Below, one piece after another: positions 3 to 64,000 of a DNA stretch of 64,000 nucleotides; the stretch's first letter is position 1, and each line of letters starts with the position of its first letter. Origin of the DNA: a virus (taxonomy: Duplodnaviria > Heunggongvirae > Uroviricota > Caudoviricetes); IMG/VR virus record IMGVR_UViG_3300043395_001986, positions 45,308 to 109,307 of that record; one strand, given 5' to 3'. A model generated the notes under the pieces. The model had not been told where the DNA came from. It saw nothing but the letters and a program-made list of their open reading frames with translations, and ran no database searches. The position numbers were made by a program, and so were the translations under genes.

Positions 3-1349
3 AGTGTATATGATAGGAAACTTGTTATAGAAATACCAAATTCTGGAGCAAGTAGATTTGTAAATAATAAAGTTAGATTTGAAGAACAAACATTAATAAA
101 TGACCTTTCTCCTTTAAAAAGAGCAACTGCTAAACAATACGACCAAGCAGCAGCCGATTCAAATAAATTAGGAATATTCTTTTCACCAAATAAAGATTTG
201 GATTTAAGTATAGCACAATCGTTTGGTGGGATTCAATTTGATGATTATATAGGAGACCCATCAGATGATAATGAGTATGAATATAAAACATTAAAATCAA
301 TAAGAAACTATTGGTTCAAACGTATTGATTTAAATAAACGCAACATATACGATTACATAAGATTAATACGTTCATATGATAAATCATTATTTGAAAATAT
401 AAAACAAATGTTACCAGCGAGAGTAGCAACCAATATAGGATTGTTGATTGCTCCGCATATGCTAGAACGTTCAAAAGTTGATATAAATACAAAACCACAA
501 ATAGAAAATTTATATTATAGTGGTACATATGAATACCATAATGATTATAATGTAACAATGGATGCTGATTTGTATAAGGAAGCATTGATTGGTGCTAAAC
601 AATTATTACCAACCTTCAACGCATCAGATGAAACAATAAGTGGTACTATTAATTTAGAAATAAATAAAAGTTTAGAAACTTATATTTCAAGCCTAGAAGG
701 GACGATAACGGAAACCCAAAAAATAGATACATTTTATGCATCAAATGAATATTACACAGCAAGTATAGATGCCGGATTAAGGCAACCAACATTGTTGGGT
801 TCTATTGGTTATCAAGATGCACAAAAAATAGTTGGAGTTGGAAGTAATTTTATAGATTATGGATTTGGAAACTATTTTACAAATGGATATTTTGATTACA
901 AATATTATGAAAATGGAAAACTTAATCATAAAAGATATAAAGGTTCGTTAGTAACAACAACATCAAAAACATTTACAGGATTATACACCGGTTCGGAAGG
1001 TAAAACAACATTTAAGTATGGTGGTGCAAAACCTATATTTATATCTGGTTCGGTTACTGAATTGATATTACAAGAAAGTGGCTCTAATTCATTAAATGTT
1101 GGTGATGAATTTAACAAACAGATAATATCTAATGTTAAAACAATCAATGGATATTTACCAACGCATTATAAAAATGTTGGTGACTTAACAACCGGTTTAA
1201 AAAATAGTTATTATAAAGGTTCAAAACAAACAAGTAATACAACTATTGATGGAAAATCACCGGTTGAAATATTCATATCTAATCCGACTGTATTAAGAGT
1301 TAATAAGCAAGGTAGAGTTAGTGGTGAACCAATTTTAGAAGTTGATTAA
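3..1349 (+). CDS. Probable virion structural (baseplate-region) protein, 5'-truncated
   Basis: The frame is open from position 3 (SVYDRKLVIEIPNSG...), so the track's TTG start at 198 is internal. Lies upstream of structural-type genes and carries TGS/SGS motifs. Confidence 0.5.
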   Translation, partial: SVYDRKLVIEIPNSGASRFVNNKVRFEEQTLINDLSPLKRATAKQYDQAAADSNKLGIFFSPNKDLDLSIAQSFGGIQFDDYIGDPSDDNEYEYKTLKSIRNYWFKRIDLNKRNIYDYIRLIRSYDKSLFENIKQMLPARVATNIGLLIAPHMLERSKVDINTKPQIENLYYSGTYEYHNDYNVTMDADLYKEALIGAKQLLPTFNASDETISGTINLEINKSLETYISSLEGTITETQKIDTFYASNEYYTASIDAGLRQPTLLGSIGYQDAQKIVGVGSNFIDYGFGNYFTNGYFDYKYYENGKLNHKRYKGSLVTTTSKTFTGLYTGSEGKTTFKYGGAKPIFISGSVTELILQESGSNSLNVGDEFNKQIISNVKTINGYLPTHYKNVGDLTTGLKNSYYKGSKQTSNTTIDGKSPVEIFISNPTVLRVNKQGRVSGEPILEVD

Positions 1350-1376
1350 TAAAATAAAAATATTTTTTGAATACTT

Positions 1377-1385
1377 ATATTTATA
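1377..1385 (+). promoter_or_regulatory. Putative late promoter ATATTTATA
   Basis: Recurrent intergenic motif upstream of structural genes. Confidence 0.55.
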
Positions 1386-1406
1386 ATTTAGAAATATATA
1401 CACAAT

Positions 1407-2027: not shown

Positions 2028-2036
2028 TAAAAATAT

Positions 2037-3254: not shown

Positions 3255-3274
3255 AAATCGTATTGGTATGTGAT

Positions 3275-3307: not shown

Positions 3308-3324
3308 CAATATATTTATTTTAT

Positions 3325-14054: not shown

Positions 14055-15068
14055 ATGCTAGATGTTTTAGTTACAACAGGTGCCGGAAATGTACCAATCG
14101 GTGGAAGTGATATATGGGTTAATATGTTCTTAAACGAAGTGTTACCATATTTACAAAGTAATGTTGTATTGTATATAGATAACAAACTACCAGTAGGATT
14201 TGATATTAAAAGTTTACCTGTACGCTATGTTGTAACAAATGAAGATGAAAGAATAGTTGATTTAGTTTTAAACAAAGCAGATAGAATACATTTTCTTCAT
14301 AACAATTATTTTGAAAGACCTAAATTGTGGAAATATAAACAAAAATTTCACACATATTTTTGTCACGCATATATTCAAGAAATTATAAACACAAATATAG
14401 AATTAGGGCTTGATAAAATTTATTTACCAACAAAAATGGATTTAAATTGGGAACAAAATGTAATTAAAGAATGTAAGAAAGTTGTATGGATTGGGTGTAA
14501 TGATGGATTGGTTGAAAAACAACACAAAGATAAATGTATTAGAATACCAAACTACTACCAATTCACAGAAAATAAACCATTTGAATATAAGAACGATAAA
14601 ATAGGATATGCAGCAAGAATTGAAACAAGAAAAGCACCACATTATTTAAGTGGCAAACAGGCTTTAATTTGTTCAAATGCAATGGATTGGGAAAATTACA
14701 AAGAGTATTTTAAAATAAATGATAGGAAAATAAAATTTTACCATTATAATTTGGAAAATCACAAAAATTTCTTTAATTTAGACTTCTCTGTATTCCACGC
14801 TTGCTACTTAAATGAGCCGTTTGGATATTCTATATTTAACGCAGTAGATTATGGAAAATTACCAATATTACATTCCGATTGGTGTCCAGAATTAGAGTAC
14901 AAATATAGAGCAAGTACGAAAGAAGAATTTGATAATGTTTATGAAATTATTAAATTAGATTCGTTTGAAGAAAAAGAAAAAGAGTTTTATAATTTAAAAT
15001 TCTTTTTACAAAGATTCACCAGCAGAGAAAAATGGATTGGAAAAATAGTAAGTGTTTTAAATAAATGA
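14055..15068 (+). CDS. Glycosyltransferase, GT-B (GT4-like)
   Basis: IGGSDIW N-terminal motif, ARIETRKAP, EPFGYSIFNAVDYGKLPI. Confidence 0.75.
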   Translation: MLDVLVTTGAGNVPIGGSDIWVNMFLNEVLPYLQSNVVLYIDNKLPVGFDIKSLPVRYVVTNEDERIVDLVLNKADRIHFLHNNYFERPKLWKYKQKFHTYFCHAYIQEIINTNIELGLDKIYLPTKMDLNWEQNVIKECKKVVWIGCNDGLVEKQHKDKCIRIPNYYQFTENKPFEYKNDKIGYAARIETRKAPHYLSGKQALICSNAMDWENYKEYFKINDRKIKFYHYNLENHKNFFNLDFSVFHACYLNEPFGYSIFNAVDYGKLPILHSDWCPELEYKYRASTKEEFDNVYEIIKLDSFEEKEKEFYNLKFFLQRFTSREKWIGKIVSVLNK

Positions 15069-15820
15069 TAACAAATAAAGATTACATTAAAAATTATATC
15101 ACCAATAATTTAGAATTTAATGAGGTTGGTGAAGAAGTGTTAAAAGATGTCCCATATCGTTGGTCACATGGTGCAACAGATGAACATTTAGGCGATGGAC
15201 TAATTATATACTCTATTATTCAGTATATGAGAGCAAAAGTATGTGTATGTTTAGGCAGTGGTGGCGGATTTATACCTAGAATTATGACACAGGCTAGAAT
15301 TGATTTACATTCTCAAAATATATTAGAAGGTAATAGAGATTATAATTGGGGTGATATTGGAACAACATATGTAGTAGATGCAATGAATGGAATTGGTGGT
15401 AATGTAAATTGGTTTAAAGAAGAATCTTTCTTTAGAAGAACATTTTATCCAAGAATTATTAATGATACAACTGCAAATGCATTTCATAATTTTTTTGTAT
15501 TAAATGATATTAAGATTGATTATTTGCATATTGATGCAGGTCATTCATACGAAAACGTAAAAGAAGATTTTGAATTATATTCTCAATTAATGAGTGAGAA
15601 TGGTATTATATCAATTCACGATACAGACCCGAATTACGCGGATAAATACATAGTTACAAATGAAGTAAAAGATAGAGGAGACCACGATGATTGGAGTGGA
15701 CCAATTAAATTAGCAAAAGAAATAGATACTGAAAAATGGCAAGTTTTTGACCTATTTAATTTTGGCATTATAAAAAACAAACCAGCTTCAACCGGATTAA
15801 CTTTAGTAAGAAAAAAATAA
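15065..15820 (+). CDS. Class I SAM-dependent methyltransferase (Methyltransf_24-like)
   Basis: VCLGSGGG, IDYLHIDAGHSYENVKEDF, GIISIHD. Confidence 0.8.
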   Translation: MITNKDYIKNYITNNLEFNEVGEEVLKDVPYRWSHGATDEHLGDGLIIYSIIQYMRAKVCVCLGSGGGFIPRIMTQARIDLHSQNILEGNRDYNWGDIGTTYVVDAMNGIGGNVNWFKEESFFRRTFYPRIINDTTANAFHNFFVLNDIKIDYLHIDAGHSYENVKEDFELYSQLMSENGIISIHDTDPNYADKYIVTNEVKDRGDHDDWSGPIKLAKEIDTEKWQVFDLFNFGIIKNKPASTGLTLVRKK

Positions 15821-16674
15821 TGAAACCAAAATTAGTTACTGTCACAGGGCATAGAACAAATACATTATGGCATCAACTAAACCATTATAAAGATATGGTT
15901 AGTGATATTTTTGTTATTACATATGAAAACGAAGATTCTCCAAAAAATATAAAAGGAGAAGTTGAATATATTTGCAAACAATTTGGAATTACACCACATA
16001 CTGTCAGAACACATAGACCTTTTGATTGGGAATATGTAACACAATTATATAATGAAACAAAAATGTTACACCCAAATGATTGGTGGATTGTATCAGATGA
16101 TGACGAGTTTCAAATATATAATGATTTAGTTGAAAACATAATTGATGAGTGTGAAGAATTTGGATATAAATTTGTAACGGGTGGATTTATAGATAGAATT
16201 GGGTTTAATGGTGATTTTCCAAAAATAAAAGAGAAAGAAGACATTTGGAAGCAATTTCCAATGGCTGGATTTTTTCGATATCCAATGAGTGGAGCGTGTC
16301 CAAATAAAGTTACCTTAATGAAAGGATGGATAGAACTTACACCTGGACAGCATTATGCAAAAATAGATGGTCAAACAACTTGGAGATGGCAAGGTTGGAA
16401 CCACCCACTTCGATATCCAGTAGATAGAAACTTTACGCAAGTGCATCATTTTAAATGGGATTCAACCGTCGTAGATAGATTGCAAGATGTTGCAAATATT
16501 GGTAAAGTTTATGCATTTTCAAAAGAATATAAAGAAATGTATGAAGCATTAAAAGAAAATAATTTTATGCTTGATATTTATGATAAGAAATATATGTTTG
16601 AAGAAGTAAATAAAATTGGATATCACTACTATAAAAGTTGGGGTAAACTTTCTAAAATAATTCAATCAATATAA
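15820..16674 (+). CDS. GT-A (GT2-like) glycosyltransferase
   Basis: WWIVSDDDEF DxD motif, GQH and VHHFKW. Confidence 0.7.
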   Translation: MKPKLVTVTGHRTNTLWHQLNHYKDMVSDIFVITYENEDSPKNIKGEVEYICKQFGITPHTVRTHRPFDWEYVTQLYNETKMLHPNDWWIVSDDDEFQIYNDLVENIIDECEEFGYKFVTGGFIDRIGFNGDFPKIKEKEDIWKQFPMAGFFRYPMSGACPNKVTLMKGWIELTPGQHYAKIDGQTTWRWQGWNHPLRYPVDRNFTQVHHFKWDSTVVDRLQDVANIGKVYAFSKEYKEMYEALKENNFMLDIYDKKYMFEEVNKIGYHYYKSWGKLSKIIQSI

Positions 16675-16706
16675 TTTGTTTATTTGAAATAAATTCGTTA
16701 CATTTG
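16675..16706 (+). promoter_or_regulatory. Bacteroidota sigma70-type promoter
   Basis: TTTG 16675-16678, 20-nt spacer, TACATTTG 16699-16706; ATG at 16711. Confidence 0.75.
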
Positions 16707-16710
16707 TAAA

Positions 16711-18201
16711 ATGGAAAATAAAAGATTAGGTCTAATAGTTCCGTGGAGAGGAGATTACCAAGACCTTCATAAGTTTTTAGGTCATATAGAATATTTCTTA
16801 AATAATAAAGAGATAAATTATAAATTCTATATAATTGAACAGGTTGATAAAAAACCTTTCAATTATGGTGCGTTGTGCAATACTGGCTATGAATTGGCAA
16901 AAGATGAATGTGATTATTTTATTTTCCACAGCCCTTATTTTATTCCAGTTGATGATACATGTGATTATTCTTATTCCACAAAAGTTCAACATCTATCATC
17001 GGTAGTAGATGCATTTGGATATAAAAAACCATATGCAGAATGGATAGGTGGTGCAATAAAATTTACACACGAAACATTTGAAGAAGTAAACGGATATTCT
17101 GATGAATATTGGGGAATAGGTATGGAAGATGTTGATATGTTGTATAGATTAAATCGTAAAAAATTAGTAAGAAATAAAAAATATTTTAATATTGATATGC
17201 TTAAAGAGCATGATTTATTTGATATAAATGAAATTTCAAATCTAAAAAAAGTAAGTTTAACATATTTTGATTTTGATAAAAAATATAAATCATGTATGAT
17301 TAAATCAACAAAAAATACAAAATATGTTTTTCAAGATAGTTTTACTATTGATATGTTTTTGTATGTAGATAGAAATAAAAACTACGATAGTTTTATTTTT
17401 GGAAAACAAGGTTATAACGCCGGCATCTTTTTTAAAGATAACAAAGCATTGAATTTACAATTATGGAATAGTGATGGTAAGGTATGTGAAGTTTGGTATG
17501 AGAATTTTAATTTATTAGAAAGGTGGATGAAAATAACTATGAAATTTGATTTTGATGCACAACATCTTTGGTTATATGTCGATGGTCTACCAGTAGCAAG
17601 TAATTCATTTAATGGTGAAGTATTTGATTATACAGATAAAGATATTTGGATTGGTAGTTTAGCATTCAATCATCAATTTTCTGGTAAAGTTTCAAACATA
17701 TTGGTATTTGACTACGCATTATCGGATTCGGAAATATTAAACTTATATAAACAAAATTATATAAACGAAACCGGTAATATTGTAACGAGAGAAAAGGCAA
17801 TTATTGATATTCCATTTTCTAAAAAATATAAAGATTTTTATATTGATATGGGATTATATGAATCGCATGTAAGAGATTTATCCGCAACAAAAGAAGATAA
17901 TACAAAAACAGAATTAATATCATTAAATTATGATTATAATTTTCCAGAAGAAACACCTGGAAAATACAAATGTTTAGATGTAGATAGAATGAATGACTTC
18001 AAAAATATTTGGAGATGGTCTGGTAATGTGGATTTAGAAGAAAACAAACATATATTTTTTAATGATGTACTACCATCAAAAACTTATTTTAAAAAAGTTG
18101 GATTATCATCATTGGAATTTAAAAAAGAAAACGAATTTTATCCAAAAGGAGAAGATGGGATGGATAGAAAAAATGTAGAAATATATCAAATTAAACTATA
18201 A
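16711..18201 (+). CDS. GT7 (beta-1,4-galactosyltransferase-like) protein with inserted LamG domain; degenerate active site
   Basis: IVPWR, EQVDKKPFNYGAL, NGYSDEYWGIGMEDVD; DxD replaced by FHSPYF; LamG motifs (LYVDG, IWIG, FSGKVSN..VFDYALS). Confidence 0.75.
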   Translation: MENKRLGLIVPWRGDYQDLHKFLGHIEYFLNNKEINYKFYIIEQVDKKPFNYGALCNTGYELAKDECDYFIFHSPYFIPVDDTCDYSYSTKVQHLSSVVDAFGYKKPYAEWIGGAIKFTHETFEEVNGYSDEYWGIGMEDVDMLYRLNRKKLVRNKKYFNIDMLKEHDLFDINEISNLKKVSLTYFDFDKKYKSCMIKSTKNTKYVFQDSFTIDMFLYVDRNKNYDSFIFGKQGYNAGIFFKDNKALNLQLWNSDGKVCEVWYENFNLLERWMKITMKFDFDAQHLWLYVDGLPVASNSFNGEVFDYTDKDIWIGSLAFNHQFSGKVSNILVFDYALSDSEILNLYKQNYINETGNIVTREKAIIDIPFSKKYKDFYIDMGLYESHVRDLSATKEDNTKTELISLNYDYNFPEETPGKYKCLDVDRMNDFKNIWRWSGNVDLEENKHIFFNDVLPSKTYFKKVGLSSLEFKKENEFYPKGEDGMDRKNVEIYQIKL

Positions 18202-18205
18202 AATT

Positions 18206-18499
18206 ATGGCAACATCAAAAAAAGAAACTGAAAAAAATGTAGAATCTACATCAGTAGCATTATTAGAAGAAAGAAAAGTTAAAGCATTGGAAAAAATAGC
18301 CAAATCACTGGATGCATTAACATCTTGGGTTGAAGATATAGATAAGGCAGAATGGAGCGAAAGAATCCAGTATTATTTATATGAGTTCTTAAATAAAGAC
18401 CAATCCAAATCGTATAGACAAGATAAGAATACTAAAACACAAGAAGAAGATACAGAAGAAGCAGAATTTGTAAGACCAACTCGTAGAATAGTTGAATAA
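18206..18499 (+). CDS. Hypothetical small helical protein
   Basis: 97-aa ORF packed tightly between GT7 genes. Confidence 0.65.
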   Translation: MATSKKETEKNVESTSVALLEERKVKALEKIAKSLDALTSWVEDIDKAEWSERIQYYLYEFLNKDQSKSYRQDKNTKTQEEDTEEAEFVRPTRRIVE

Positions 18500-19947
18500 T
18501 GAAATTAGGAGTAATCGTACCATATAGAGATAGAGAAGAACATCTTAATATTTTTAAGAAAGAGTTTTGTGCTTTTTTAGAGCAAAAATCTATTCCGTTT
18601 GAACTTATCATTGTAGAACAATATGATGATAAACCATTTAATAGAGGAAAGCTTTTAAATATAGGTGCTATGAAGGCATCTGAAATCGGATGTACTTATT
18701 TAGCATTTCATGATGTTGATATGATACCATTGGAGGCAGATTATTCATTTGAGTTTAAACCAATACATTTGGCAACATCATTTGTTAAAGATGAAACAAA
18801 TGAGATAGAAACATTGCATTTTGATGAATATTTTGGAGGAGTAACATTATTTCCAGTAGACCAATTTGAACAAATCAATGGGTATTCAAATGAATATTGG
18901 GGATGGGGATTTGAAGATGATGATTTACTTTTTAGATGTAAAAAATTTAATTTACCATTAGATAAAAAAACATATGGTAAATCTACATTAAAAGTAATGA
19001 ATAGTTTTTCATTTACAGGAGATGCATACATATCAATACCAATTCAACCATTAGCAAATGATACTTTATTTGATTGGAGAAAATCACAGACAGTTTTAAT
19101 AACATTCCAGCCAAGTAACATATATTGTGATACATCAAAGAAAAAAGATGATTTTACAGTCTTTTCTATACCAGGATATGATACCTGTATTTCGTATACT
19201 TCCGATAGAAGATACAAAGTAGAAACATGGACAGATAGTAATGAGTGTGTATCTATAAATTCTGAACAAATGGATGAACAATGGGTACAGATTGCATTTG
19301 TTATGGATGTAAAAAGAAAAGAAATTAAATTTTACTTAAATAGTAAATTAATTGGAATTGAAAAAATGCCATCATTCTTTAAAGAGTATGTAACAGAAGA
19401 ACCACATTTTTATTTAGGAGTGGGAGACCCATATAGAGAGAAAGACAAAAACTTTTTTACAGGATTAGTATCAGGATTTTCTGTATTTGATACTATTTTA
19501 GATGATAAAGAAATTGAGTTTTTATATGAAAACATAAATTCTTTTTCTTTATTAAGTAATTTTAAAAAATATAAAAGTTCTGAACATCTTGCTGTATATT
19601 ATGATTTTCAACATTATAAAAATGGAAAAATATTAGATATAAGTGGTAAGGGAAGACATGGTGAAATTACAAATGCTTATTTTAAGCAAACAAAAGAAGT
19701 ATTTGGTAAAACAATACCTCTTCCATATAGAAGGATATCTAAATTTAAAAAATTAAATCATTATAATAATGGATGGGAAAGAGGAGGATGGATACAAGAA
19801 GAAACCCGTTTAAATCAAATTCGTTTTATGAATGATGTTTCAAACAATATGATAGATATAAGAAAGGATGGATTAAATAGTTGCTTATATAACATAGTAA
19901 AACAAGAATCAGTAAATAATATTCATCACATATATACAAGAATATGA
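18499..19947 (+). CDS. GT7 glycosyltransferase with inserted LamG domain
   Basis: IVPYRDREEHL, FNRGKLLNIG, FHDVDM, YFGGV, NGYSNEYWGWGFEDDDL; LamG; C-terminal H...DGLN. Confidence 0.85.
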   Translation: MKLGVIVPYRDREEHLNIFKKEFCAFLEQKSIPFELIIVEQYDDKPFNRGKLLNIGAMKASEIGCTYLAFHDVDMIPLEADYSFEFKPIHLATSFVKDETNEIETLHFDEYFGGVTLFPVDQFEQINGYSNEYWGWGFEDDDLLFRCKKFNLPLDKKTYGKSTLKVMNSFSFTGDAYISIPIQPLANDTLFDWRKSQTVLITFQPSNIYCDTSKKKDDFTVFSIPGYDTCISYTSDRRYKVETWTDSNECVSINSEQMDEQWVQIAFVMDVKRKEIKFYLNSKLIGIEKMPSFFKEYVTEEPHFYLGVGDPYREKDKNFFTGLVSGFSVFDTILDDKEIEFLYENINSFSLLSNFKKYKSSEHLAVYYDFQHYKNGKILDISGKGRHGEITNAYFKQTKEVFGKTIPLPYRRISKFKKLNHYNNGWERGGWIQEETRLNQIRFMNDVSNNMIDIRKDGLNSCLYNIVKQESVNNIHHIYTRI

Positions 19948-21401
19948 AATTAGGCGTATGTGTACCATATAGAAACAGAGAAGAACATTTAGCAAAATTT
20001 TCACCTCATGTTCATGAATTTCTTAAAAAAAGAGGAATAGACCATAAGATTTATTTTGCACACCAATGCGACGATAAATTGTTCAACAGAGGTAAAATGA
20101 AAAATATTGCAGCGGATATTGCATTTAAAGATGGGTGTGATTATATCGTATGGCATGATATTGATATGTTACCAGAAGATGATTCCTGTGATTATAGTTA
20201 CAATCCTGATACTCCAAAACATTTGGCAGTAAGAATATCACAATCAGATTATAACCTCAAATATGAGGAGTATTTTGGTGGCGCCGTATTGTTTACAAAG
20301 GAGCAGGTTATGAAAACCAATGGTTACTCAAATGATTATTGGGATTGGGGTATGGAAGATGATGATTTGTTTTGGAGATGCGTTGTGAACGGATACGCTG
20401 ACCAAAAGTATTTACACGACAAATATGTTCAAAAAGTTTTACATTTTAATGGAAAAAATTCATCAGTAGAAATACCTGTAAGTAGGAATATTAGGGGATT
20501 ATGTTCACGTTCTCATACTGTCTCAATTTTAGTAAAAGCAGAACAGCAATTAGATAAGGCTCCATTGTATTTAATTGGTGATGATGAAAGAAGATTTGTG
20601 GAATATCCTATAATAAGAAGACCTGGATATGATTGGGGATTGAGTTATAATAATAGTAGAGCATATACAACTATGTTATGGAATTATGAAAAGGAATTTT
20701 TATATATGTGGATGAAAAGATACGAAGAACAATGGACATGGGTAACATTGACAGTTGATGATGAAACAAAAGAAATTCGTTTGTATTTAAATGGAAAGGA
20801 AAGTGATAGTAGATTTGGAACAGGTGTGCCATCACCATTAAAATATAATGGATTATTGAAACGATATGCAAGTGAACCATATATATTAGGAACAACAAAT
20901 TCATTAGCAGATTCACATCCTGCAAAATGGTTTAAAGGTTCAATTGCAAAAGTTGCAATGTGGGACAGATGTTTATCAGAAGAAGAAATTCAACAAAGTA
21001 TTTTAGGTGAACCTATTAAAGAAGATTTGCAATTATATTATGATTTTGCAAAATCTAGATTTGGATTAATAAATGATTTAAGTGGAAATGACAACTATGG
21101 AAATATATTTAATATAACTGAAATAGAAGATGAAATTGCAATTCCATATACAATATTACCACATCGGAGAGATGGTAAATTCTTTTGTTTACCACACCAA
21201 ACAGAAGGATTAATCCAAATAGATGGTGTAGATAAATGGGCTAAAGGAGAAACAACTGCAAGAAATGAAAGAAGATATGTTCTTCAAATGCAACAAGGTG
21301 AATGGGATTGGAAAAATGATGGGATGAATAACTTAACCTATGAGTTATTATCAATAGAAGATATAGGTAACAATTCAGTAATAATAAATTGTAAATGCTA
21401 A
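19944..21401 (+). CDS. GT7 glycosyltransferase with inserted LamG domain
   Basis: VPYRNREEHL, FNRGKMKN, WHDIDM, YFGGA, NGYSNDYWDWGMEDDDL; LamG; C-terminal H...DGMN. Confidence 0.85.
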   Translation: MKLGVCVPYRNREEHLAKFSPHVHEFLKKRGIDHKIYFAHQCDDKLFNRGKMKNIAADIAFKDGCDYIVWHDIDMLPEDDSCDYSYNPDTPKHLAVRISQSDYNLKYEEYFGGAVLFTKEQVMKTNGYSNDYWDWGMEDDDLFWRCVVNGYADQKYLHDKYVQKVLHFNGKNSSVEIPVSRNIRGLCSRSHTVSILVKAEQQLDKAPLYLIGDDERRFVEYPIIRRPGYDWGLSYNNSRAYTTMLWNYEKEFLYMWMKRYEEQWTWVTLTVDDETKEIRLYLNGKESDSRFGTGVPSPLKYNGLLKRYASEPYILGTTNSLADSHPAKWFKGSIAKVAMWDRCLSEEEIQQSILGEPIKEDLQLYYDFAKSRFGLINDLSGNDNYGNIFNITEIEDEIAIPYTILPHRRDGKFFCLPHQTEGLIQIDGVDKWAKGETTARNERRYVLQMQQGEWDWKNDGMNNLTYELLSIEDIGNNSVIINCKC

Positions 21402-21404
21402 TAA

Positions 21405-22799
21405 ATGATAAGTAATAATTTTTTTGATGATGTAAGATATAAACTCAATTCAGTAGGACCTGGATTTTGTTTGGCTAAATGGAAACAGGTTACATTACAT
21501 CTACACATTGGTCACAATCATAGTTGTCACCACCCGGGTACACATAAAATTTCTGAAAGAGAAATAGCAGAAGACCCATCGCATCTTCACAATACTCGAT
21601 TTAAAAAAGAGAGAAGAAAGGAAATGTTAGAAGGTAAAAGACCTAAAGAGTGCGATTATTGTTGGAGAGTAGAAGATAGTTCCGATGCGTTTTCCGATAG
21701 AACATTTAAATCAGCAGAACCATGGGCGTTACCATATTATAATCAAATAAAAAACCTACCAGCAGATGCGAATGTATTACCATCATATGTAGAAGTATCA
21801 TTTAGTAATGCATGTAACTTTAAATGTTCATATTGTGCACCACCATTTTCAACACAATGGATGGAAGAAATTGAACAATTTGGTGCATATCCAACTGCGG
21901 GTAAATTTAATGGATTAGAACATTTCCAATTAAGTGATAGAATGCCAATACCACAAAATCAGCACAATCCTTATGTAGAAGCGTTTTGGAAATGGTGGCC
22001 TGAATTATATAAAGGATTACATACATTTCGTATAACTGGTGGTGAACCATTTATGCATAAAGATACATTTAAGGTATTGGATTATATTTTGGAAACACCA
22101 AATCCAAATAAAAACTTAGCATTAAGTATGAATAGTAATTTGGGAGTTCCTGATAAGTTATTCAATAAAGCAAAGGAAAAATTAAAAGAGATAAGTGATA
22201 GAGGATTGGTTAGAGAATTGATTTTATTTACATCAGTAGATACACATGGTGCACAGGCCGAATATATTAGAAATGGATTAGTATATAATCAATTGATGGA
22301 TAGAATGGATATTTTGTTAAAAGAAATACCAAGATTAACAATTATCATTATGAGTACATATAACGCATTATCTGTTCCAAAATATAAAAAATTAATTCAC
22401 GAAGTATATGATTTAAAAGCATTATATGCAGATGAAAATCGTTATTATCAACAATCGGTTTTATTGGATAGTTCATATCTTCGTTGGCCATCACATCAAC
22501 ATATTAAATTATTAGATAATCATTGGTCAAAAGAAATAATGGAGCAGGCACAACTTATGGATTTTTATGAGTTTAGTAGAGTTGGAGCAGGCTGTTGGGG
22601 ATATAGTGATGTTGAAATTGTTAAAATGAAAAGAATAGCTGATTATATGAAATCAGTAGAAAATGAAGAAGCTATAAAATACGATAGACAAGATTTCTAT
22701 CGCTTTTTTAGCGAACATGATAGACGAAGAGGAACTGATTTTTGTAAAACATTCCCCGAATTAGAAGAATTTTATAATAAATGTAAAGAGTTATGTTAA
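21405..22799 (+). CDS. Radical SAM protein with N-terminal Twitch/SPASM-like Cys cluster
   Basis: CNFKCSYC and ITGGEP; N-terminal CLAKW..HSCHH..ECDYCW. Confidence 0.88.
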   Translation: MISNNFFDDVRYKLNSVGPGFCLAKWKQVTLHLHIGHNHSCHHPGTHKISEREIAEDPSHLHNTRFKKERRKEMLEGKRPKECDYCWRVEDSSDAFSDRTFKSAEPWALPYYNQIKNLPADANVLPSYVEVSFSNACNFKCSYCAPPFSTQWMEEIEQFGAYPTAGKFNGLEHFQLSDRMPIPQNQHNPYVEAFWKWWPELYKGLHTFRITGGEPFMHKDTFKVLDYILETPNPNKNLALSMNSNLGVPDKLFNKAKEKLKEISDRGLVRELILFTSVDTHGAQAEYIRNGLVYNQLMDRMDILLKEIPRLTIIIMSTYNALSVPKYKKLIHEVYDLKALYADENRYYQQSVLLDSSYLRWPSHQHIKLLDNHWSKEIMEQAQLMDFYEFSRVGAGCWGYSDVEIVKMKRIADYMKSVENEEAIKYDRQDFYRFFSEHDRRRGTDFCKTFPELEEFYNKCKELC

Positions 22800-23629
22800 A
22801 TGAATATGTAAAATTTACGGATAATCTTTCCGTACAGGTCTATGAAAATAGTAAACATGGTACATCTATGAAAGATGATGCTGTTAAAACTTTTTTTAAT
22901 AAAACATTTAGCATATACGCTAAATTTAAATTAGATAAAACTGCCTTTTGTAATGCAGAAAATACATATGGTGTATTTGCTAAACAAGGAATGCACTCTG
23001 GTGTTTGGTTAAGAGATAGTTGCGTTGTTGGTTTGGTTTTTACTCAAGATGAAAAAAATAATGTTAAAGAAATAGCGTTACCAATATGGATAGATGAAAA
23101 AGAGTTTTATGGTGAGATACAAATTTTATTTCAAGTAGATAATGAAAATAAAAAAGTAAAACTATATGTAAATGATAAAGAAGCAGAAGCAACATTGGAT
23201 AATCCAGTAGTAGATTATTCACAGGCACCTTTTTGGATTGGAGCATGTGCACCCTGGTATACCGAAGATTTACAATGGTTTTTTAATGGGGAAATATATG
23301 AATTTGCAATAAATGAAAAATTCTTAAATGAAGAACAAGTAAAAACAATATTTGTAAATAAAGGATATACTAATATTGTTAATTCTGAAATAAATGAATC
23401 TTTATTTGCTTGGTATGAATTTACTATTAAAAATTTTAGTAGATTTAAAGTGTTTGATAAAAGTAATAATGGTAACCATGGAATAGTACCAGATTGGCAT
23501 TTTTTAGAGGTTAGAGATAAATTACAAGCATATAGTAGGGATAAAATAGAAATAAGCGAATTTGGAAAAAAATTAATACCAAAAAAAGAAGAAGTAAAAA
23601 ATAAAAGTAATCCATTTAATCTTATATAA
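22793..23629 (+). CDS. Stand-alone LamG/concanavalin-like domain protein
   Basis: KLYVN, FWIGA, FNGEIYE, DKSNNGNHG; FAKQGMHSG resembles FGKQGYNAG in the 16711 insert. Confidence 0.7.
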   Translation: MLNEYVKFTDNLSVQVYENSKHGTSMKDDAVKTFFNKTFSIYAKFKLDKTAFCNAENTYGVFAKQGMHSGVWLRDSCVVGLVFTQDEKNNVKEIALPIWIDEKEFYGEIQILFQVDNENKKVKLYVNDKEAEATLDNPVVDYSQAPFWIGACAPWYTEDLQWFFNGEIYEFAINEKFLNEEQVKTIFVNKGYTNIVNSEINESLFAWYEFTIKNFSRFKVFDKSNNGNHGIVPDWHFLEVRDKLQAYSRDKIEISEFGKKLIPKKEEVKNKSNPFNLI

Positions 23630-23630
23630 A

Positions 23631-24599: not shown

Positions 24600-24601
24600 G
24601 T

Positions 24602-29462: not shown

Positions 29463-29476
29463 TTATTAAAAAAGAT

Positions 29477-30933: not shown

Positions 30934-30934
30934 T

Positions 30935-31912: not shown

Positions 31913-31915
31913 GTT

Positions 31916-33891: not shown

Positions 33892-33893
33892 TT

Positions 33894-50285: not shown

Positions 50286-51923
50286 ATGGCACAATTCGAT
50301 TTATCAAAATTGATGGAAGGCAAAAACCCACAATCAGTAATGCTTGAGCAAACTAGAGGTTTGAGAAGCAAGTGGGAAAAAACTGGCCTTTTAGAAGGTA
50401 TCGGAACTGCAACTGAAAAAGCAGGTATGGCGGTACTTTTAGAAAACCAAGCAAAGCAATTGTTGGATGAAGCAAACTATACTTCAACAACAGCTGGTAA
50501 CGAAGAATGGTCTGGAGTGGCTTTACCACTTGTAAGACGTATCTTCGGTGAAATTGCAGCAAAAGAATTCGTTTCAGTACAACCAATGAACTTACCTTCA
50601 GGTTTGATTTTCTATATGGATTTCAAATATGGTTCTAACCAACCAGGTAACCCATCTTTCCAAAACTCATCATTATTCGGTAGTGGTGGTTTAGCAGGTA
50701 AAGATTCTTTATCTCCATCAGGTGAAAAATTAGGTTCTACTCAAACTGCACAAGGTGGTTTATATGGTGCAGGTAGATTCGGATACACTTTAAACGATAC
50801 ATTCTCATCTTCAGCAGCTACTTTATGGTCTACATCTTCAGTATCTTTCGCAGATGTTAACTTTGATGCTAATTTCTTAGCAACTGGTTCATTAAAGAAA
50901 GTGACTGTAGGTATTCCTTCAGACGCTGATTACAATGGTATCAGAAGTTTCCAAATTGGTGGTGCACAAATCACTTCAGGATACTATCCACAATTTACAA
51001 AATTAGATGGTACAACTTTATCATTCATCGTTCCTGCTATCACTGGTTTATTAACTGGTTCATTAAGATTGGACTACACTAAGCAACCAACTGCAGCAAA
51101 CAGAGGTGATTTCGAAGAGAAAGGTACAAGATTTAATGATGTAAATGATGGTGATGCATTAGACATCCCAACAATCGACCTTGAATTAAAATCAGAGGCT
51201 ATCGTTGCTAAAACTCGTAAGTTGAAAGCAGTATGGACTCCTGAATTAGCTCAAGACTTAAACGCTTACCATTCAATTGATGCAGAAGCTGAATTAACTT
51301 CTATGTTATCTGAATACATCTCTTTAGAGATTGATTTGGAAATTTTAGAAATGTTACAGCAAAATGCATTGACTACAGAAAGATGGTCAGCTAGAGTTGG
51401 TTATGAGTACGACCAAGCAACAAGTGCATTCGTAGCTGATTCTTCAACAAATGCAGCATCTGCATACCAAAAGAACACTTGGTTCCAAACTTTAGGTGTT
51501 AAAATCAATAAGGTATCTAACAAGATTCACCAATTGACTTTAAGAGGTGGTGCTAACTTTATCGTTGCATCTCCAGATGTATGTACTATTTTAGAATCAA
51601 TTCCAGGATTTGCAGTAACTGCTGATAAAGACGCTAAGCAATTCTCTGCTGGTGTTTCTGCAGTAGGTAACATCGCAAACAGATACACTGTCTACAAAAA
51701 TCCTTACATGACTGAAAACGTAATGTTAATGGGTTACAAAGGAAATAACTTCCTTGAGACTGGTGCTGTTTATTCTCCATATGTACCATTGGTATTAACT
51801 CCATTGGTGTACGATCCAGATAACTTCACTCCAAGAAGAGGAGTTATGACTCGTTACGCTAAGAAGATGGTAAGACCAGAATTCTATGGTAAGATTGTTA
51901 TCGCTGATATGGATAAAATCTAA
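50286..51923 (+). CDS. Major capsid protein (T4 gp23-like)
   Basis: LLENQ, LPLVRR, VQPMNLPSGLIF, KTRKLKAVWTPELAQDLNAYH, YSPYVPL, GVMTRY. Confidence 0.96.
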   Translation: MAQFDLSKLMEGKNPQSVMLEQTRGLRSKWEKTGLLEGIGTATEKAGMAVLLENQAKQLLDEANYTSTTAGNEEWSGVALPLVRRIFGEIAAKEFVSVQPMNLPSGLIFYMDFKYGSNQPGNPSFQNSSLFGSGGLAGKDSLSPSGEKLGSTQTAQGGLYGAGRFGYTLNDTFSSSAATLWSTSSVSFADVNFDANFLATGSLKKVTVGIPSDADYNGIRSFQIGGAQITSGYYPQFTKLDGTTLSFIVPAITGLLTGSLRLDYTKQPTAANRGDFEEKGTRFNDVNDGDALDIPTIDLELKSEAIVAKTRKLKAVWTPELAQDLNAYHSIDAEAELTSMLSEYISLEIDLEILEMLQQNALTTERWSARVGYEYDQATSAFVADSSTNAASAYQKNTWFQTLGVKINKVSNKIHQLTLRGGANFIVASPDVCTILESIPGFAVTADKDAKQFSAGVSAVGNIANRYTVYKNPYMTENVMLMGYKGNNFLETGAVYSPYVPLVLTPLVYDPDNFTPRRGVMTRYAKKMVRPEFYGKIVIADMDKI

Positions 51924-52023: not shown

Positions 52024-53274
52024 ATGTCTTGTAACAATAACACGAGCGGCGGACTTTCAGCAAAATGGCCAGGAAGTGCATCATTTTCATCTGGTTCCGG
52101 CGATACTCCTTTTGGAATATATGATTCGGATTTGGATTTCCAACATGACGCACCTTTGGTTGCAAATTATGTAGCTAGAAGATTAGGATACCCATCTATT
52201 GATATTGAATTAAATGCTTGCCAATTATTTACCTGTTTTGAAGAAGCAGTTACTGAATATTCTGCACAAGTAAATCAATTTAATATTCGTAATAACTTAT
52301 ATAATTTAGTTGGTAACGAAAGAACATATGAAAAAGTAAATGATTCTTCATCATTAGATTTAAATGGTAAATGGGTAGAAGGTTCAAACTTAAATCAGGT
52401 AATACAAATATCTGACCAATATGGAAGCGAAGCATTGGTAGGTGGTAACATAGCATTGAGAAGTGCTAGTATTAGTTTAGAAGTTGGACAACAATCATAT
52501 GATTTAAAAGAACTTTTTGAAAATACATTACATAGTGGAAGTAAAATAGAAGTTCGTAAAGTATTCCATGATGGTATACCTGCTGTATCGCGTTTCTTCG
52601 ACCCGTATGCAGTATCTGCGATGGGTACATTGAATTTAATTGATGAATTTGGATTTGCATCGTTTTCACCAACTGCTCAATTTGTATTGATGCCTTTGTT
52701 CGAAGATATTTTAAGAATGCAACAAATTGAATTCAATGACCAAATTCGTAGAAGTTTTTATTCATTTCATATAGTAGATAATGTAATAAAAATTTTCCCA
52801 ATACCAACAACAACACAATCTATTAAAAAGGTTTGGATTCAATATACATTAGAAGATGATAGATATGAAGGAAGTAGTACTGGTAATATTAGAATAAAAG
52901 GAGATGATAATAGTGGAGTAAGTAATGTTATTGGTGATTACTCAAATATTGGTTATGATTTTATGAAATATGCAGCAATCAATTCCGTTGGTAAACAATG
53001 GATTTGGAGATATACATTGGCTTTGGCAAAAGAATTATTAGGGGCAGTTAGAGAAAAATATGCAACTATACCGATTGCAGGGCAAGATAGTATTTCTTTA
53101 GATGGAGCGGCATTAAGAGCAGAAGCATTGCAGGACAAGGAAACATTGTTTAATCAATTAAGACAAACATTAGAAGAATTAAGTAAACCAAAGCAAATGG
53201 AATATAAAGCAGCAGAAGCTGAGCAAGTTCAGAAAATGTTGGGTAAAGTTCCTTTGCCATTTTATATAGGATAA
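52024..53274 (+). CDS. Neck/head-tail adaptor (T4 gp13-like)
   Basis: RRLGYPSIDIEL..Q...CFEEA; WIWRYTLALAKELLG.VREKY; follows the capsid gene. Confidence 0.8.
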   Translation: MSCNNNTSGGLSAKWPGSASFSSGSGDTPFGIYDSDLDFQHDAPLVANYVARRLGYPSIDIELNACQLFTCFEEAVTEYSAQVNQFNIRNNLYNLVGNERTYEKVNDSSSLDLNGKWVEGSNLNQVIQISDQYGSEALVGGNIALRSASISLEVGQQSYDLKELFENTLHSGSKIEVRKVFHDGIPAVSRFFDPYAVSAMGTLNLIDEFGFASFSPTAQFVLMPLFEDILRMQQIEFNDQIRRSFYSFHIVDNVIKIFPIPTTTQSIKKVWIQYTLEDDRYEGSSTGNIRIKGDDNSGVSNVIGDYSNIGYDFMKYAAINSVGKQWIWRYTLALAKELLGAVREKYATIPIAGQDSISLDGAALRAEALQDKETLFNQLRQTLEELSKPKQMEYKAAEAEQVQKMLGKVPLPFYIG

Positions 53275-61600: not shown

Positions 61601-63470
61601 AAGTTCTGTAAGTGGTGCGGTAGCAACTTCATTAAGTGCAAGTAAAGCAGAATACACAGCATTCTCTGCAAGTTCAGCAACAGCATTAAATAATTTAAGT
61701 TCTTCAGTAGCATCTGATTTAAACACTTTAAGTTCATCTATATATCAAACAGATGCAACTCAAAGTAATAATATTTCAATTGTAAGTGCAAGTGCATGGG
61801 GAGCATTTCAAAGTGCAAGTTCATATAGTGGAAGTGCAGCAACCACCTTAAATAACTTCAGTTCATCGGTAGCAACAGACTTTAGTGCGAGCCAAGCGGC
61901 ACAAAATCAAATAATATCAGCTTCTCAATATGATGTGACAGTATTAAGTTCATCTGTTGCAACTTCTTTAAGTGCAAGTGCAGCAAACGTAACTAATATA
62001 AGTTCATCATTTGCAAGTAATATAAACACTTTAAGTGCATCAATATATCAAACAGATGCAACTCAAAGTAACGCAATAAATGCAAATTCTCAAAGTTTTG
62101 CAACTTCTTTAAGTGCAAGTGCAGCAAGTGTAACTGCATTAAGTTCTTCGGTAGCATCTGATTTAAATTCAGTAAGTGGTGCAGTAGCAACTTCTTTAAG
62201 TGCAAGTAAAGCAGAATACACATCATTTAGTGCAAGTGCAGCAAGCAATTTAAATAGTGTAAGTGGAGCATTTGCAACTTCTACATCAGCAAGTAATGCA
62301 GCTATTGCAGCGTTAAGTGCAAGTGTAGCAAGTACAACTGGTGATTTCAGTAGTTCAGTAGCAACTCAATTTAGTGCAAGTGCAGCAAGTGTAACTTCAT
62401 TAAGTTCTTCAGTAGCATCTGATTTAAATAATTTAAGTTCTTCATTAGTAACTTCAATTTCTGCAAGTAATGCAAATGAAGCAGTATGGAGTGCATCAAT
62501 AGCAGGTAGAGCAACTAAATTAGAAGCATCTCAATCGGCATTTGATACGGCATTCACTTTAAGTGGTTCAAGTGTAACTGTCAAAGGAAATTTAGTAGTT
62601 AATGGTACAACTACGACCGTTAATTCTACAACTATTGAATTGGGCGACAACATCATCAGTTTAAATGGTACAACTGCAGCATTCGGTGGTATTCAAATAA
62701 ATGACCAATTAGATGGTTCGAAAGTAAGTGGTTCATTATTATGGAACGCACAAGATGATTATTGGATAGCGGGTAAGAGTGGTAGTGAAGCAAAAATATT
62801 AGTGGCAGTAGGTGATAATGTAGTAAGTTCATCAGCACAAATAACATTAAGTTCTACAACAGGATTTAGTTCATTTGATACCGCAATTTCAACTTCATTC
62901 TCTGCAAGTAATGCAAGTATATCATCTTTATCTGCAAGTGTAGCAAGTGTAACTGGCGACTTTAGTTCATCTGTTGCAACTTCATTTAGTGCTAGTAATG
63001 CAAGTATTGCAGCATTAAGTGCGAGTGTAGCAAGTGTAACCGGAGATTTCAGTAGTAGTGTAGCAACTTCGTTTAGTGCAAGTGCAGCATCACAAACAGC
63101 ATTAAGTTCTTCAGTAGCAACCACTATTAGTAATTTAAGTTCTTCAGTAGCGACTTCATTCTCTGCTAGTTACTTTGAAATTGCAAATAATAGTTCATCA
63201 TTTGCAACTTCAGTATCAGCATCAAATGCAAGTATAGCAAGTTTAAGTGCAAGTGTAGCAAGTGTAACGGGAGATTTCAGTTCATCAGTAGCAACTTCGT
63301 TTAGTGCAAGTGCATTTAATTTAGAAGCATTAAGTGCATCAATATACTTAACTGACGCTACTCAAAGTACCGATATAACAAATAATAGTGCATCTTTTGC
63401 AACCGCAATAAGTTCAAGTAATTACAGAATTACAAACTTGGAGTTAGTAATTGATGGAGGTTCTTTCTAA
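58692..63470 (+). CDS. Giant Ser/Ala/Thr-repeat fibre protein (1592 aa)
   Basis: Long SAS/SSS repeats interrupted by beta-rich modules; ends IDGGSF. Confidence 0.8.
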   Translation: MAQQILNKRGSLDRLSANTGSAQKGEILIATGSSKLNNVTNGQGLVFAAVESGSIVAANRILTGNTPQIFSASQYGHLMDGVPFYASSSKTLYLLGADGNTAIDLSGNISDFSSSVSSSFASLSASVASVTGDFSSSVATSFSASAASVAALSASIHTTIFDFGGLSSSIEQSISASSAKAASDLHSYSASAATTDSASAASIAALSASVASVTGDFSSSVATSFSASAASQNNLSASVATSFSASAASQNDLSSSVATTISNLSSSIATTDSASAAYAASQLNSVSGAVATTINNVSGAFATSTSASNAAIASLSASVASVTGDFSSSVATSFSASTASQNNLSASLATTISASSATAASDNFNLSSSVATTISNLSSSIATTDSASAASQNDLSSSVATTISNLSSSIATTDSASKAEYTSFSASAASQFNTFSSSQASVNATYATTGSNTFVGTEVISGSLYITNNLVVYGSSSVQNVTASAVSIGTNTVVLNTANPAIRFGGIQVIDSGSSQATGSLLWDSENNVWLYANPVGAGYGSARLIAGPQNTGSLGEEIGLSTTYVPVALGDDHIGDSNIKVVGNEVTIEAGNLYVEGALSASTITGIGNVADFSSSISASIASINTNLGSGGSLGTRVANLETISSSYLAFTQSYYSDSSSFDTRISASKAEYTSFSASAASDLNNVSSSVATSFSASVASQLELSASIATTDSASAAYAASQLLNVSGAFATSTSASNASIASLSASVASVTGDFSSSVATSFSSSNANVTSISGAFATSLSASNANVTSISGAFATSTSASNAAIEALSASVASTTGNFSSSVAGRLNVIETTYATTGSNVFHGDQTLTGSFSMTGTANFNNAVAVNDSNMNLGNSSSLNLTGGSSIYVAGVGVISGSIVGIGNVSAYSASVDSRFSASAFELSILSASVASVGGTFSSSVATTISNLSSSIATDFSASAAYAASQLSSVSGAVATSLSASKAEYTAFSASSATALNNLSSSVASDLNTLSSSIYQTDATQSNNISIVSASAWGAFQSASSYSGSAATTLNNFSSSVATDFSASQAAQNQIISASQYDVTVLSSSVATSLSASAANVTNISSSFASNINTLSASIYQTDATQSNAINANSQSFATSLSASAASVTALSSSVASDLNSVSGAVATSLSASKAEYTSFSASAASNLNSVSGAFATSTSASNAAIAALSASVASTTGDFSSSVATQFSASAASVTSLSSSVASDLNNLSSSLVTSISASNANEAVWSASIAGRATKLEASQSAFDTAFTLSGSSVTVKGNLVVNGTTTTVNSTTIELGDNIISLNGTTAAFGGIQINDQLDGSKVSGSLLWNAQDDYWIAGKSGSEAKILVAVGDNVVSSSAQITLSSTTGFSSFDTAISTSFSASNASISSLSASVASVTGDFSSSVATSFSASNASIAALSASVASVTGDFSSSVATSFSASAASQTALSSSVATTISNLSSSVATSFSASYFEIANNSSSFATSVSASNASIASLSASVASVTGDFSSSVATSFSASAFNLEALSASIYLTDATQSTDITNNSASFATAISSSNYRITNLELVIDGGSF
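59020..63420 (+). repeat. Intragenic repeats (SASVASVTGDFSSSVATSFSAS; NLSSS[IV]ATT)
   Basis: About ten SASVAS[VT]TG[DN]FSSSVA copies and many 11- and 18-residue units, also visible in DNA (gcaagtgtagcaagtgtaac). Confidence 0.9.
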
Positions 63471-63499
63471 TATAACAAAGGAAAAAGGATAATAAAAAT

Positions 63500-64000
63500 A
63501 TGGCAACAGCAGTAACACAATCAATTTTATTAAGACGTTCAAATATAGCGGGAAAAGTTCCTACTACGTCATCACTTCAATTAGGTGAATTAGCATTAAA
63601 TACTAATGATGGTAGAGCCTTCATGAAAAAAGATGATGGTGTAAACGTAACCATTGAGCAATTTGTCGTAACTGGTGCAGAAGTAACCGGAAGTATTAAT
63701 ATATTAGGAACAGGTAGTTTTGGTCAATTAGAAATAAATGGTAATGCAAATTTTGACGGAAATGCACAATTTGTAACTGCTTCTGGATATTTTACTGGTT
63801 CATTCGGTGGTGATGGTAGCGGATTATATGGTATTACCGCATCAATGAGACCTGATGACTTTGATTTCAATAGACCAGAAGAAGCATTTGCAGGGACAGT
63901 TGGATATATTCAAGGAACAGGTTCAGCATATTCAGTTCAAGCAGTTAATACAGGAGTTGAATTACTTTATAATGATGTAATATTTAGTGCATTTACAAAT
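63500..64000 (+). CDS. Tail fibre-like protein, 3'-truncated (not in the ORF track)
   Basis: ATG at 63500: MATAVTQSILLRRSNIAGKVPTTSSLQLGELALNTNDGRAF, a common fibre N-terminal module; open to the window end. Confidence 0.75.
   Translation, partial: MATAVTQSILLRRSNIAGKVPTTSSLQLGELALNTNDGRAFMKKDDGVNVTIEQFVVTGAEVTGSINILGTGSFGQLEINGNANFDGNAQFVTASGYFTGSFGGDGSGLYGITASMRPDDFDFNRPEEAFAGTVGYIQGTGSAYSVQAVNTGVELLYNDVIFSAFTN

Follow-up and report, generated by a model that had tools for sequence, protein, structure and literature searches.

The 64,000-nucleotide stretch of DNA analysed here (the window) comprises bases 45308–109307 of IMGVR_UViG_3300043395_001986, one virus record of 237,307 bp that represents an uncultured phage. 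It is considered for a short ordered tripeptide, [ST]-[GASQ]-S, that recurs in the predicted virion proteins. The record has a G+C content of ~30 % and carries nearly all of its genes on one strand. PHROG and Pfam scans of the window identified genes for an endonuclease, a primase, an SbcCD fusion, a 1438-aa tail fibre, a 20-kb block of sugar enzymes, terminase, portal, prohead protease, a T4-type major capsid protein (MCP), a neck protein and a run of fibre-like proteins. The MCP shared 50–56 % identity with its counterparts in Flavobacterium phage immuto, Microcystis phage Mel-JY01 and the uncultured phage LR756508 (484 kb), and 38 % with that of Rhodothermus phage RM378; immuto (grown on Flavobacterium sp. 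LMO8), RM378 and Mel-JY01 are the cultured members of this MCP clade. More than 590 closer relatives (MCP identity 65–87 %) were present in IMG/VR.

A sequence-only reading of the window had proposed that the tripeptide is a possible glycosylation sequon of exposed virion proteins, and all the peptides that it quoted from the proteins g2037 and g3325, the MCP and the neck protein were found in the sequences. Within the structural proteins of the window, [ST]-[GASQ]-S was ~2.5–2.9-fold enriched and [ST]-G-S 4.3-fold, with per-protein z values of 4–8 under whole-protein shuffling (Table 1). In the repetitive protein g58692, which is built of repeat units of 8, 11 and 18 residues and has tandem repeats in its DNA, the sites reduced to 30–45 flank clusters, and the count for this protein therefore mainly reflects its repeats. 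The remaining structural set held 132 sites, compared with 46 expected from whole-protein shuffling and 53.5 from local shuffling within 30 or 12 aa (z >11); as the local expectation rose only to 53.5, the excess is not due to stretches rich in Ser and Gly. Composition and low complexity were thus rejected by both global and local shuffles, the enrichment being far above that given by Ser/Thr/Gly content, and internal repeats were rejected as the cause outside g58692 and accepted for g58692 itself. Independent flanks were found for 122 of the 132 sites.

Table 1. Motif-bearing proteins and sugar-related genes considered in this work. Positions are those of the window unless marked 'genome'; site counts are for [ST]-[GASQ]-S, observed versus expected
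Feature	Position	Strand	Sites	Remarks
1601-aa baseplate/fibre-module protein, C-terminal part	3..1349	+	4 in window part; whole ORF (open reading frame) 16 vs 5.3	unannotated
g2037, 405 aa	2037..3254	+	10 (9 being [ST]GS) vs 3.4, z=3.9	non-repetitive, unannotated
g3325, 484 aa	3325..4779	+	5 vs 1.1, z=3.75	unannotated
g9732, tail fibre, 1438 aa	9732..14048	+	44 vs 14.7, z=7.9	
20-kb island of soluble sugar-synthesis/transfer proteins	14055..34688	+	0–1 per protein	candidate glycan supply (Pfam)
Three paralogous GT7 (β4GalT-like) enzymes fused to a ConA-like lectin domain	16711–18201, 18499–19947, 19944–21401	+		Pfam GT7N, GT7C and Laminin_G_3 above cut-offs
97-aa ORF	18206–18499	+		between the first two GT7 genes
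Radical SAM protein	21405–22799			in island
Split transketolase	25135–25767 and 31916–32461			in island
Two prolyl-hydroxylase-type 2-oxoglutarate (2OG) oxygenases	29477–30933			in island
MCP variable segment, residues ~121–260	50646..51065 (MCP gene 50286–51923)	+		holds nearly all capsid motif sites
Neck/adaptor-like protein	52024..53274	+	6 vs 1.5	phrog_211 head-tail adaptor
g55553, fibre-like, 696 aa	55553..57643	+	33 vs 12.1, z=6.3	
g57659, small fibre-associated protein	57659–57934	+	6 vs 1.4	
g57949, small fibre-associated protein	57949–58605	+	12 vs 3.9	
g58692, repetitive fibrous protein, 1592 aa	58692..63470	+	128	26 % Ser, 17 % Ala
g63500, N-terminal part of a 205-aa fibre-type protein	63500..64000	+	8 vs 0.8, z=8.6; whole ORF 10 vs 1.5	
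ATP-grasp-Hint enzyme	genome 12774–14267		6 vs 1.3	outside virion modules
Second sugar cluster, two GT4 and three GT2 enzymes	genome 173–179 kb (173104–179302)			
Poly-Ser protein, 499 aa	genome 196163–197662		41	

The motif was ordered. When the same residue classes were arranged differently, the observed/expected (O/E) ratios were ~1, and [ST]-x-S with a middle residue from outside the set gave 0.91. An unbiased scan ranked SGS, TGS and SAS first, second and third of 8000 tripeptides for over-representation; in its per-position results only Ser and Thr were enriched at position 1, only Ser at position 3, and only Gly (4.2-fold), Ala (3.0-fold), Gln (2.6-fold) and Ser (2.0-fold) at position 2, where Asn, Lys and Arg were depleted. 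The residue classes given in the sequence-only reading were closely reproduced. In the window's structural proteins TGS was found 23 times (5.5 expected) and SGS 29 times (6.6 expected), whereas SGT (four versus 5.3 expected) and TGT (two versus 4.6) were not in excess. The residues flanking the sites were hydrophobic, and the pentamer hydrophobic-[ST]-[GASQ]-S-hydrophobic occurred 146 times compared with 20.2 expected (~7-fold, z=25–35); this pentamer is the real unit of the motif.

The signal resided in the proteins and not in the DNA. The 132 sites of the coding frame compared with 0–18 in each of the five other frames, and they were encoded by 81 distinct 9-mers, which together rule out a DNA-level motif. 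Codon choice at the sites differed by position. AGT encoded 63 % of the Ser residues at position 1 and 25 % of the remaining serines in these structural genes, whilst the Ser at position 3 followed background codon frequencies. None of the known sequons considered (the Bacteroidota D-[ST]-x, N-x-[ST], the PglB type and GAG-like SGxG) was enriched, with O/E values in the structural proteins of 1.04 for D-[ST]-[AILVMT], 0.97 for N-x-[ST] and 0.77 for D/E-x-N-x-S/T.

The 271 ORFs of the whole genome held 520 sites, of which 450 fell in just 21 ORFs. In order to avoid circularity, the genome was divided into structural modules and the rest by location and not by motif count. The pentamer was found 208 times in the 52 ORFs of the structural modules (30.2 expected) and 11 times in the remaining 218 ORFs (10.9 expected), one poly-Ser secreted protein having been removed. 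Beyond the window the motif-rich ORFs included two further tail fibres, the sheath (10 sites versus 3.0 expected) and, in the baseplate module, several proteins without annotation. There were 0–1 sites each in portal, tube and baseplate hub (none in the tube), which fits in direction, although with expected counts below one the contrast lacks power. The scarcity of the motif outside virion proteins that had been noted from the sequence was borne out, with no sites in primase, terminase or protease, two in the SbcCD fusion (1.5 expected) and 0–1 in each sugar enzyme. The phage's own β-rich enzymes (lectin domains, cupins and jelly-roll oxygenases) contained one [ST]GS compared with 4.3 expected. 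Taking the motif as a predictor of exposed virion proteins, which the same reading had also suggested, is reasonable, with two exceptions. The ATP-grasp-Hint enzyme carries six sites, mostly hydrophobic-framed, and the poly-Ser secreted protein is a false positive.

The N-terminus of the latter protein is signal-peptide-like, and the protein also contains a long tract of poly-Ser/Ala and one rich in Lys and Glu; its C-terminal region resembles, by eye, an outer-membrane β-barrel, and its neighbours form a block of small membrane proteins. Its motif matches are trivial products of the poly-Ser tract and are unrelated to the virion signature.

The location of the sites was followed in orthologues and by comparison with T4. 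Across 61 distinct MCP orthologues each sequence had 3–10 sites (pooled O/E 2.67), spread over 38 alignment columns of which none was ≥90 % conserved and 24 were rare. They were confined to residues ~61–80 and 121–260, with one site in residues 261–545 among all 61 orthologues, and the O/E for residues 150–280 was 3.45 on local composition. The MCP blocks that aligned to T4 gp23 were residues 78–161 and 300–525, with the motif-dense segment lying between and around them; by this alignment it corresponds to the gp23 insertion domain and linker. The gp23-type insertion domain protrudes on the capsid surface (PMC9546572). In the neck protein (57 orthologues) the sites occupied 31 columns with high turnover. 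The N-terminal (5–83) and C-terminal (541–751) parts of the sheath aligned to gp18, whilst nine of its 10 sites lay in the unaligned middle (106–469) and none in the C-terminal core; site placement was the same in the Mel-JY01 sheath.

The 51 orthologues of g2037 had 7–12 sites each (2.8 expected), and motif residues were retained in 75 % of cases compared with 50 % for other Ser, Thr, Gly and Ala residues. Changes at g2037 sites stayed within the class (SGS/TGS, TSS/TGS and SGS/SSS), and conserved sites in g55553 orthologues likewise swapped between TGS, TAS and SSS or between TQS, TSS and TAS. An AlphaFold2 model of g2037, built from 40 sequences (mean pLDDT 67, with most of residues 80–320 ≥70), placed sites 177–179 and 213–215 in hairpin turns, 243–245 at a strand end, 105–107 just before a helix and the others in loops; no site was inside a core strand. 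Comparison of g2037 with the PDB gave no significant fold match. On the g2037 model and on the capsid and sheath alignments, therefore, the sites were not in conserved cores, as would be expected if they were exposed and not buried. Hydrophobic periodicity was 3.6 residues (helical) in the g58692 repeats and 2.1–2.4 residues (β-type) in g55553, the fibre and g2037, so that the same residue class occurs in both helical and β settings.

Among the fibre proteins, the sites of g9732 stood in diverse, hydrophobic-framed contexts. Its C-terminal part matched PHROG tail-fibre families, and a module with the signature G-x-F-[FY]-L-T-[GS]-S was repeated four times (residues ~598, 718, 833 and 964). PHROG tail-fibre N-terminal matches were obtained for g63500, and the 1601-aa protein at the start of the window had no PHROG match. 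A similar N-terminal domain of ~100 residues was present in g57949 and g58692, and a near-identical C-terminal peptide (FATDYEV.VTSSL...) in g57659 and g57949; these common termini suggest that the three proteins form a fibre family with common attachment and assembly modules.

The signature was not a generic property of T4-like virion proteins, which was ruled out by a T4 control in which 25 structural proteins, including all fibres, showed O/E values of 0.98 for the motif and 0.62 for [ST]GS and no asymmetry. It was retained in 58 related IMG/VR loci (observed/expected: [ST]GS 1535/344, TGS 566/148, SGT 134/148 and TGT 86/123); these loci are homologous, and the count thus shows conservation and not independent recurrence. 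RM378 gave a modest signal (pentamer eight versus 2.7 expected). By these comparisons (for immuto, see below), the Gly-centred hydroxyl unit extends beyond this lineage, whilst Ser-only at position 3 and the extension to Ala, Ser and Gln at position 2 are specific to it.

The sugar island of the window was annotated from Pfam matches as a methyltransferase, a GT2-like enzyme, the radical SAM protein, three SDR epimerases/dehydratases, an RmlC-like epimerase, the split transketolase, the two 2OG oxygenases, the three GT7-lectin enzymes and five unannotated proteins. The two transketolase halves (TPP-binding and pyrimidine-binding) are encoded 6 kb apart. Together with the radical SAM protein and the 2OG oxygenases, they may point to a branched-chain sugar or one that is unusual in another way.

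All three GT7 enzymes scored 55–70 bits against PF13733 and PF02709, for which the cut-offs are 27 and 23, and one paralogue (the third, encoded at 19944–21401) was searched against solved structures, where it matched human/bovine β4GalT1 over residues 2–152 (E=2e-32) and β4GalT7 (E ~1e-28). On these matches they are assigned to the GT7 β-1,4-galactosyltransferase family, and enzymes of the GT7-lectin kind are unusual in a bacterial virus. GT7 was present in every related record that was at least 49 % complete (nine of 13 records, the four misses being 21–25 % fragments). It was not found in immuto or Mel-JY01, and no GT7-lectin homologue was detected in 50,697 deposited phage genomes, so that these records offered no independent replicate of the system among cultured phages.

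The second sugar cluster has the order PD-(D/E)XK nuclease, GT4a, GT4b, small ORF and first GT2, an order common to immuto and Mel-JY01. GT4a, GT4b and one GT2 have full-length syntenic orthologues in these two phages (36–46 % identity, with 43–46 % for the two GT4 enzymes), which makes neither phage valid as a sugar-free negative control. GT4a also had matches in RM378 and LR756508 and was present at 70–71 % identity in all three complete IMG/VR relatives. Its confinement, among deposited phages, to this MCP clade makes the GT4 module a clade-defining core function. Both GT4 paralogues keep the EX7E signature in three phages. In total the genome encodes at least 11 soluble glycosyltransferases, including three GT7, the GT2-like enzyme, two GT4, three GT2 and a further GT2 match at 193 kb; one additional GT2 match was sub-threshold.

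No real transmembrane segment was predicted in the 21 island proteins or in eight proteins of the GT4/GT2 cluster, whilst membrane proteins elsewhere in the genome were detected, and among the annotated proteins of the two clusters Pfam and NCBIfam revealed neither a lipid-carrier transferase nor a flippase or polymerase. A surface-polysaccharide pathway of the Wzx/Wzy or ABC type was unsupported, given the absence of membrane proteins among these 29. DNA glycosylation of the T4 type was unsupported, as no ThyA-type hydroxymethylase (PF00303) was found in the genome and 10 of 14 control genomes were positive; this result concerns the ThyA route. The sugar machinery is thus soluble and appears directed at a cytoplasmic acceptor. 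With ~29 soluble sugar-pathway proteins, no ThyA and conserved glycosyltransferases, the genomic context fits glycosylation.

The pentamer is a lineage-specific surface signature, which marks the capsid insertion region, the neck, the outer sheath domains, the fibres and the outer baseplate. It lies on Gly turns and strand edges in β-rich proteins and within helical Ser/Ala repeats in g58692. Since one ordered residue class recurs in different folds, at sites that move whilst their number is kept, the most economical explanation is that an enzyme or other partner reads the motif, and O-glycosylation is the leading candidate because of the gene content. The motif may accordingly be considered an acceptor for cytoplasmic O-glycosylation by the phage's soluble glycosyltransferases, a reading in which attachment is what we infer and which falls a little short of being probable. 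The first sugar would be placed on a motif Ser, probably that at the Ser-only position 3, with the clade-conserved GT4a/GT4b pair or an unannotated island protein as candidate initiators, and the three β4GalT-like lectin fusions might extend the glycan with unusual deoxy or branched sugars supplied by the 20-kb island. The scheme in its full form, in which a fold-independent, Ser-specific pentapeptide sequon is read by the GT4 pair, the first sugar is extended by the animal-like β4GalT-lectin enzymes with unusual branched or deoxy sugars and a dense, lineage-specific glycan coat covers the whole outer virion in an abundant group of aquatic T4-related phages, is unlikely as a whole; if true, it would give phage virion glycosylation its first defined sequon.

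Several observations weigh against glycosylation at these sites. In g2037 orthologues the central small residue was kept in 95 % of cells, whilst position 1 remained [ST] in 76 % and position 3 remained Ser in 77 % (Thr there in 10 %); the motif is for that reason partly a structural Gly turn, in which the Gly seems to have a structural role and either hydroxyl flank, taken singly, seems easier to lose. The GT7-lectin enzymes are unlikely to read a peptide, as β4GalTs add sugar to sugar and the phage enzymes are consequently candidate extenders. An initiating protein O-glycosyltransferase of known family was not found in the genome; neither GT4 matched the GtfA/GtfB NCBIfam equivalog models (weak generic GT4-type matches only), GT9 (PF01075) gave no genome match with control genomes positive, and Maf (PF01973) and GT41 (PF13844) gave none. 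Nor was the motif avoided in enzymes, its O/E in the ORFs outside the structural modules being 1.0. In immuto, which lacks GT7 and gave the strongest signal of the isolates, hydrophobic-[ST]-G-[ST]-hydrophobic was 5–7-fold enriched in all four Ser/Thr combinations, and the motif core thus does not require the GT7 island. The signal was weak in Mel-JY01. No enrichment was seen near the MCP gene of LR756508, which has GT4a; the GT4 pair alone is insufficient for a strong motif signal. Finally, motif and transferases always co-occur within the lineage, which represents one evolutionary event and not a repeated association. The acceptor-sequon proposal of the sequence-only reading thus holds as far as enrichment, non-core placement and sugar-gene context are concerned and falls short on an attached sugar, a known initiator, immuto without GT7 and the conserved Gly.

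Three other accounts were weighed against it. An artefact of composition, low complexity or internal repeats could draw on the largely repeat-driven count of g58692 and on the poly-Ser tract that alone yields 41 matches, but the excess persists after 12- and 30-residue shuffles, with permuted orders at expectation, is confined to the coding frame, has independent flanks at nearly all sites outside g58692 and is seen across 51–61 orthologues in the non-repetitive g2037, capsid, neck and sheath proteins, which leaves this account very improbable. A purely structural origin, with Ser/Thr-Gly-Ser tight turns that join hydrophobic strand residues in exposed β hairpins and with Ser/Ala helical repeats in the g58692 fibre, nothing attached to either, and sugar genes that serve some other cytoplasmic target, is a serious if tentative competitor. 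The hydrophobic frame fits amphipathic strands, the g2037 model has two of its sites in hairpin turns and others at strand ends or in loops, the central Gly or small residue is the most conserved, the g58692 motif sits inside the 8-, 11- and 18-residue structural repeats, and immuto has a framed [ST]-G-[ST] unit without GT7. Such an origin nevertheless requires two unrelated structural reasons, one helical and one β, for a single ordered residue class. It leaves unexplained the exclusion of Thr from position 3 here when Thr is accepted in immuto, the lack of the motif in T4 and its non-use in the phage's own β-rich enzymes, and the shifting of capsid sites among 38 columns with their number maintained.

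The motif might also be a surface feature of another kind, either a target for a different Ser modification (phosphorylation, acylation or sulfation) or an unmodified hydrophilic surface that reduces sticking, proteolysis or recognition. Restriction to exposed regions and turnover at a kept density would fit any surface-directed selection, and the framed sites of the ATP-grasp-Hint enzyme count in favour of this account. A non-specific hydrophilic surface would not, however, fix the residues in a strict order or keep Thr, Asn, Lys and Arg out of set positions; neither a kinase nor an acyltransferase was linked to the virion modules, and glycosyltransferases are the most abundant tailoring activity encoded. 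This account is regarded as improbable, though less so than an artefact.

If the motif marks sugars, an abundant group of uncultured aquatic phages (represented by the IMG/VR relatives) would coat heads, sheaths and fibres at predictable sites with glycans of their own making, which bears on how phages escape sticking, grazing, proteases or host recognition. Such a motif would provide a simple sequence rule for recognizing exposed or modified virion proteins in metagenomes, and the phage would hold a soluble, peptide-directed O-glycosylation toolkit that includes bacterial-virus versions of animal β4GalT. A purely structural motif would still reveal a clear rule, specific to this lineage, by which phage surface proteins are built, and would caution against hunting for sequons by enrichment alone.

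Among known systems, glycosylation of mycobacteriophage virions is known, and is proposed to be carried out by phage glycosyltransferases in the cytoplasm before release (Freeman et al., 2023, as summarised in PMC12619734), and the glycans are placed, in the same summary, at the C-termini of capsid and tail-tube subunits. The possible likeness to that system, as it is summarised there, lies in phage-encoded glycosyltransferases for which structural proteins of the same phage are the proposed substrates. Relative to that summary, the candidate sites here are internal, occur in many proteins (in the capsid at residues ~61–260, in the tube nowhere) and show no C-terminal clustering, and the enzymes, a GT4 pair and β4GalT-like lectin fusions, had no match in the 50,697 phage genomes outside the clade. 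The 'moraphage' of PMC12619734 belongs to a different lineage from the phage studied here.

The TibC/AAH enzymes (bacterial autotransporter heptosyltransferases, BAHT) provide a second comparison and a precedent for the glycosylation reading, as they O-glycosylate a folded, β-rich surface protein in the cytoplasm at multiple sites, on Ser only, with Thr left unmodified; the mapped sites adjoin Gly or Ala (N-S-G-G, T-S-A-A) in β-helix loops, and the donor is ADP-heptose (PMC4358343). Position 3 is likewise Ser-only here, position 2 is Gly, Ala or Ser and the sites are at turns or loops, a likeness to TibC/TibA and AAH/AIDA-I that is one of sequence pattern only. The phage differs in that no GT9/BAHT enzyme or heptose pathway was seen and in that the substrates are of several folds, including helical repeats.

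The GtfA/GtfB enzymes that modify serine-rich repeat adhesins (SRRP) in the Gram-positive accessory Sec systems are also an adjacent GT-B (GT4-type) pair, and the Ser/Ala-rich g58692 with its S-A-S and S-S-S units recalls their substrate. A GtfA/GtfB-like pair was nevertheless rejected, as there was no equivalog match and EX7E was kept in both GT4 enzymes, leaving no inactive partner, and the hydrophobic positions of g58692 recur regularly every 3.6 residues, which sets it apart from a disordered (Ser-X)n tract. O-Glycosylation in Bacteroidota, the phylum infected by immuto, also uses a short sequon, D-[ST]-[AILVMT], which was unenriched here. This system and the N-linked systems act outside the cytoplasm.

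A further enzymic parallel is with the animal β-1,4-galactosyltransferases β4GalT1 and β4GalT7, with which the phage enzymes share both GT7 Pfam domains (E=1e-27 to 1e-32 for the searched paralogue), the phage enzymes differing in being soluble with no membrane anchor. In mucin-type ppGalNAc-transferases a lectin-type domain lies C-terminal to the catalytic domain. The lectin domain also follows the catalytic domain in the phage GT7 enzymes, where it is ConA-like and not of the ricin type.

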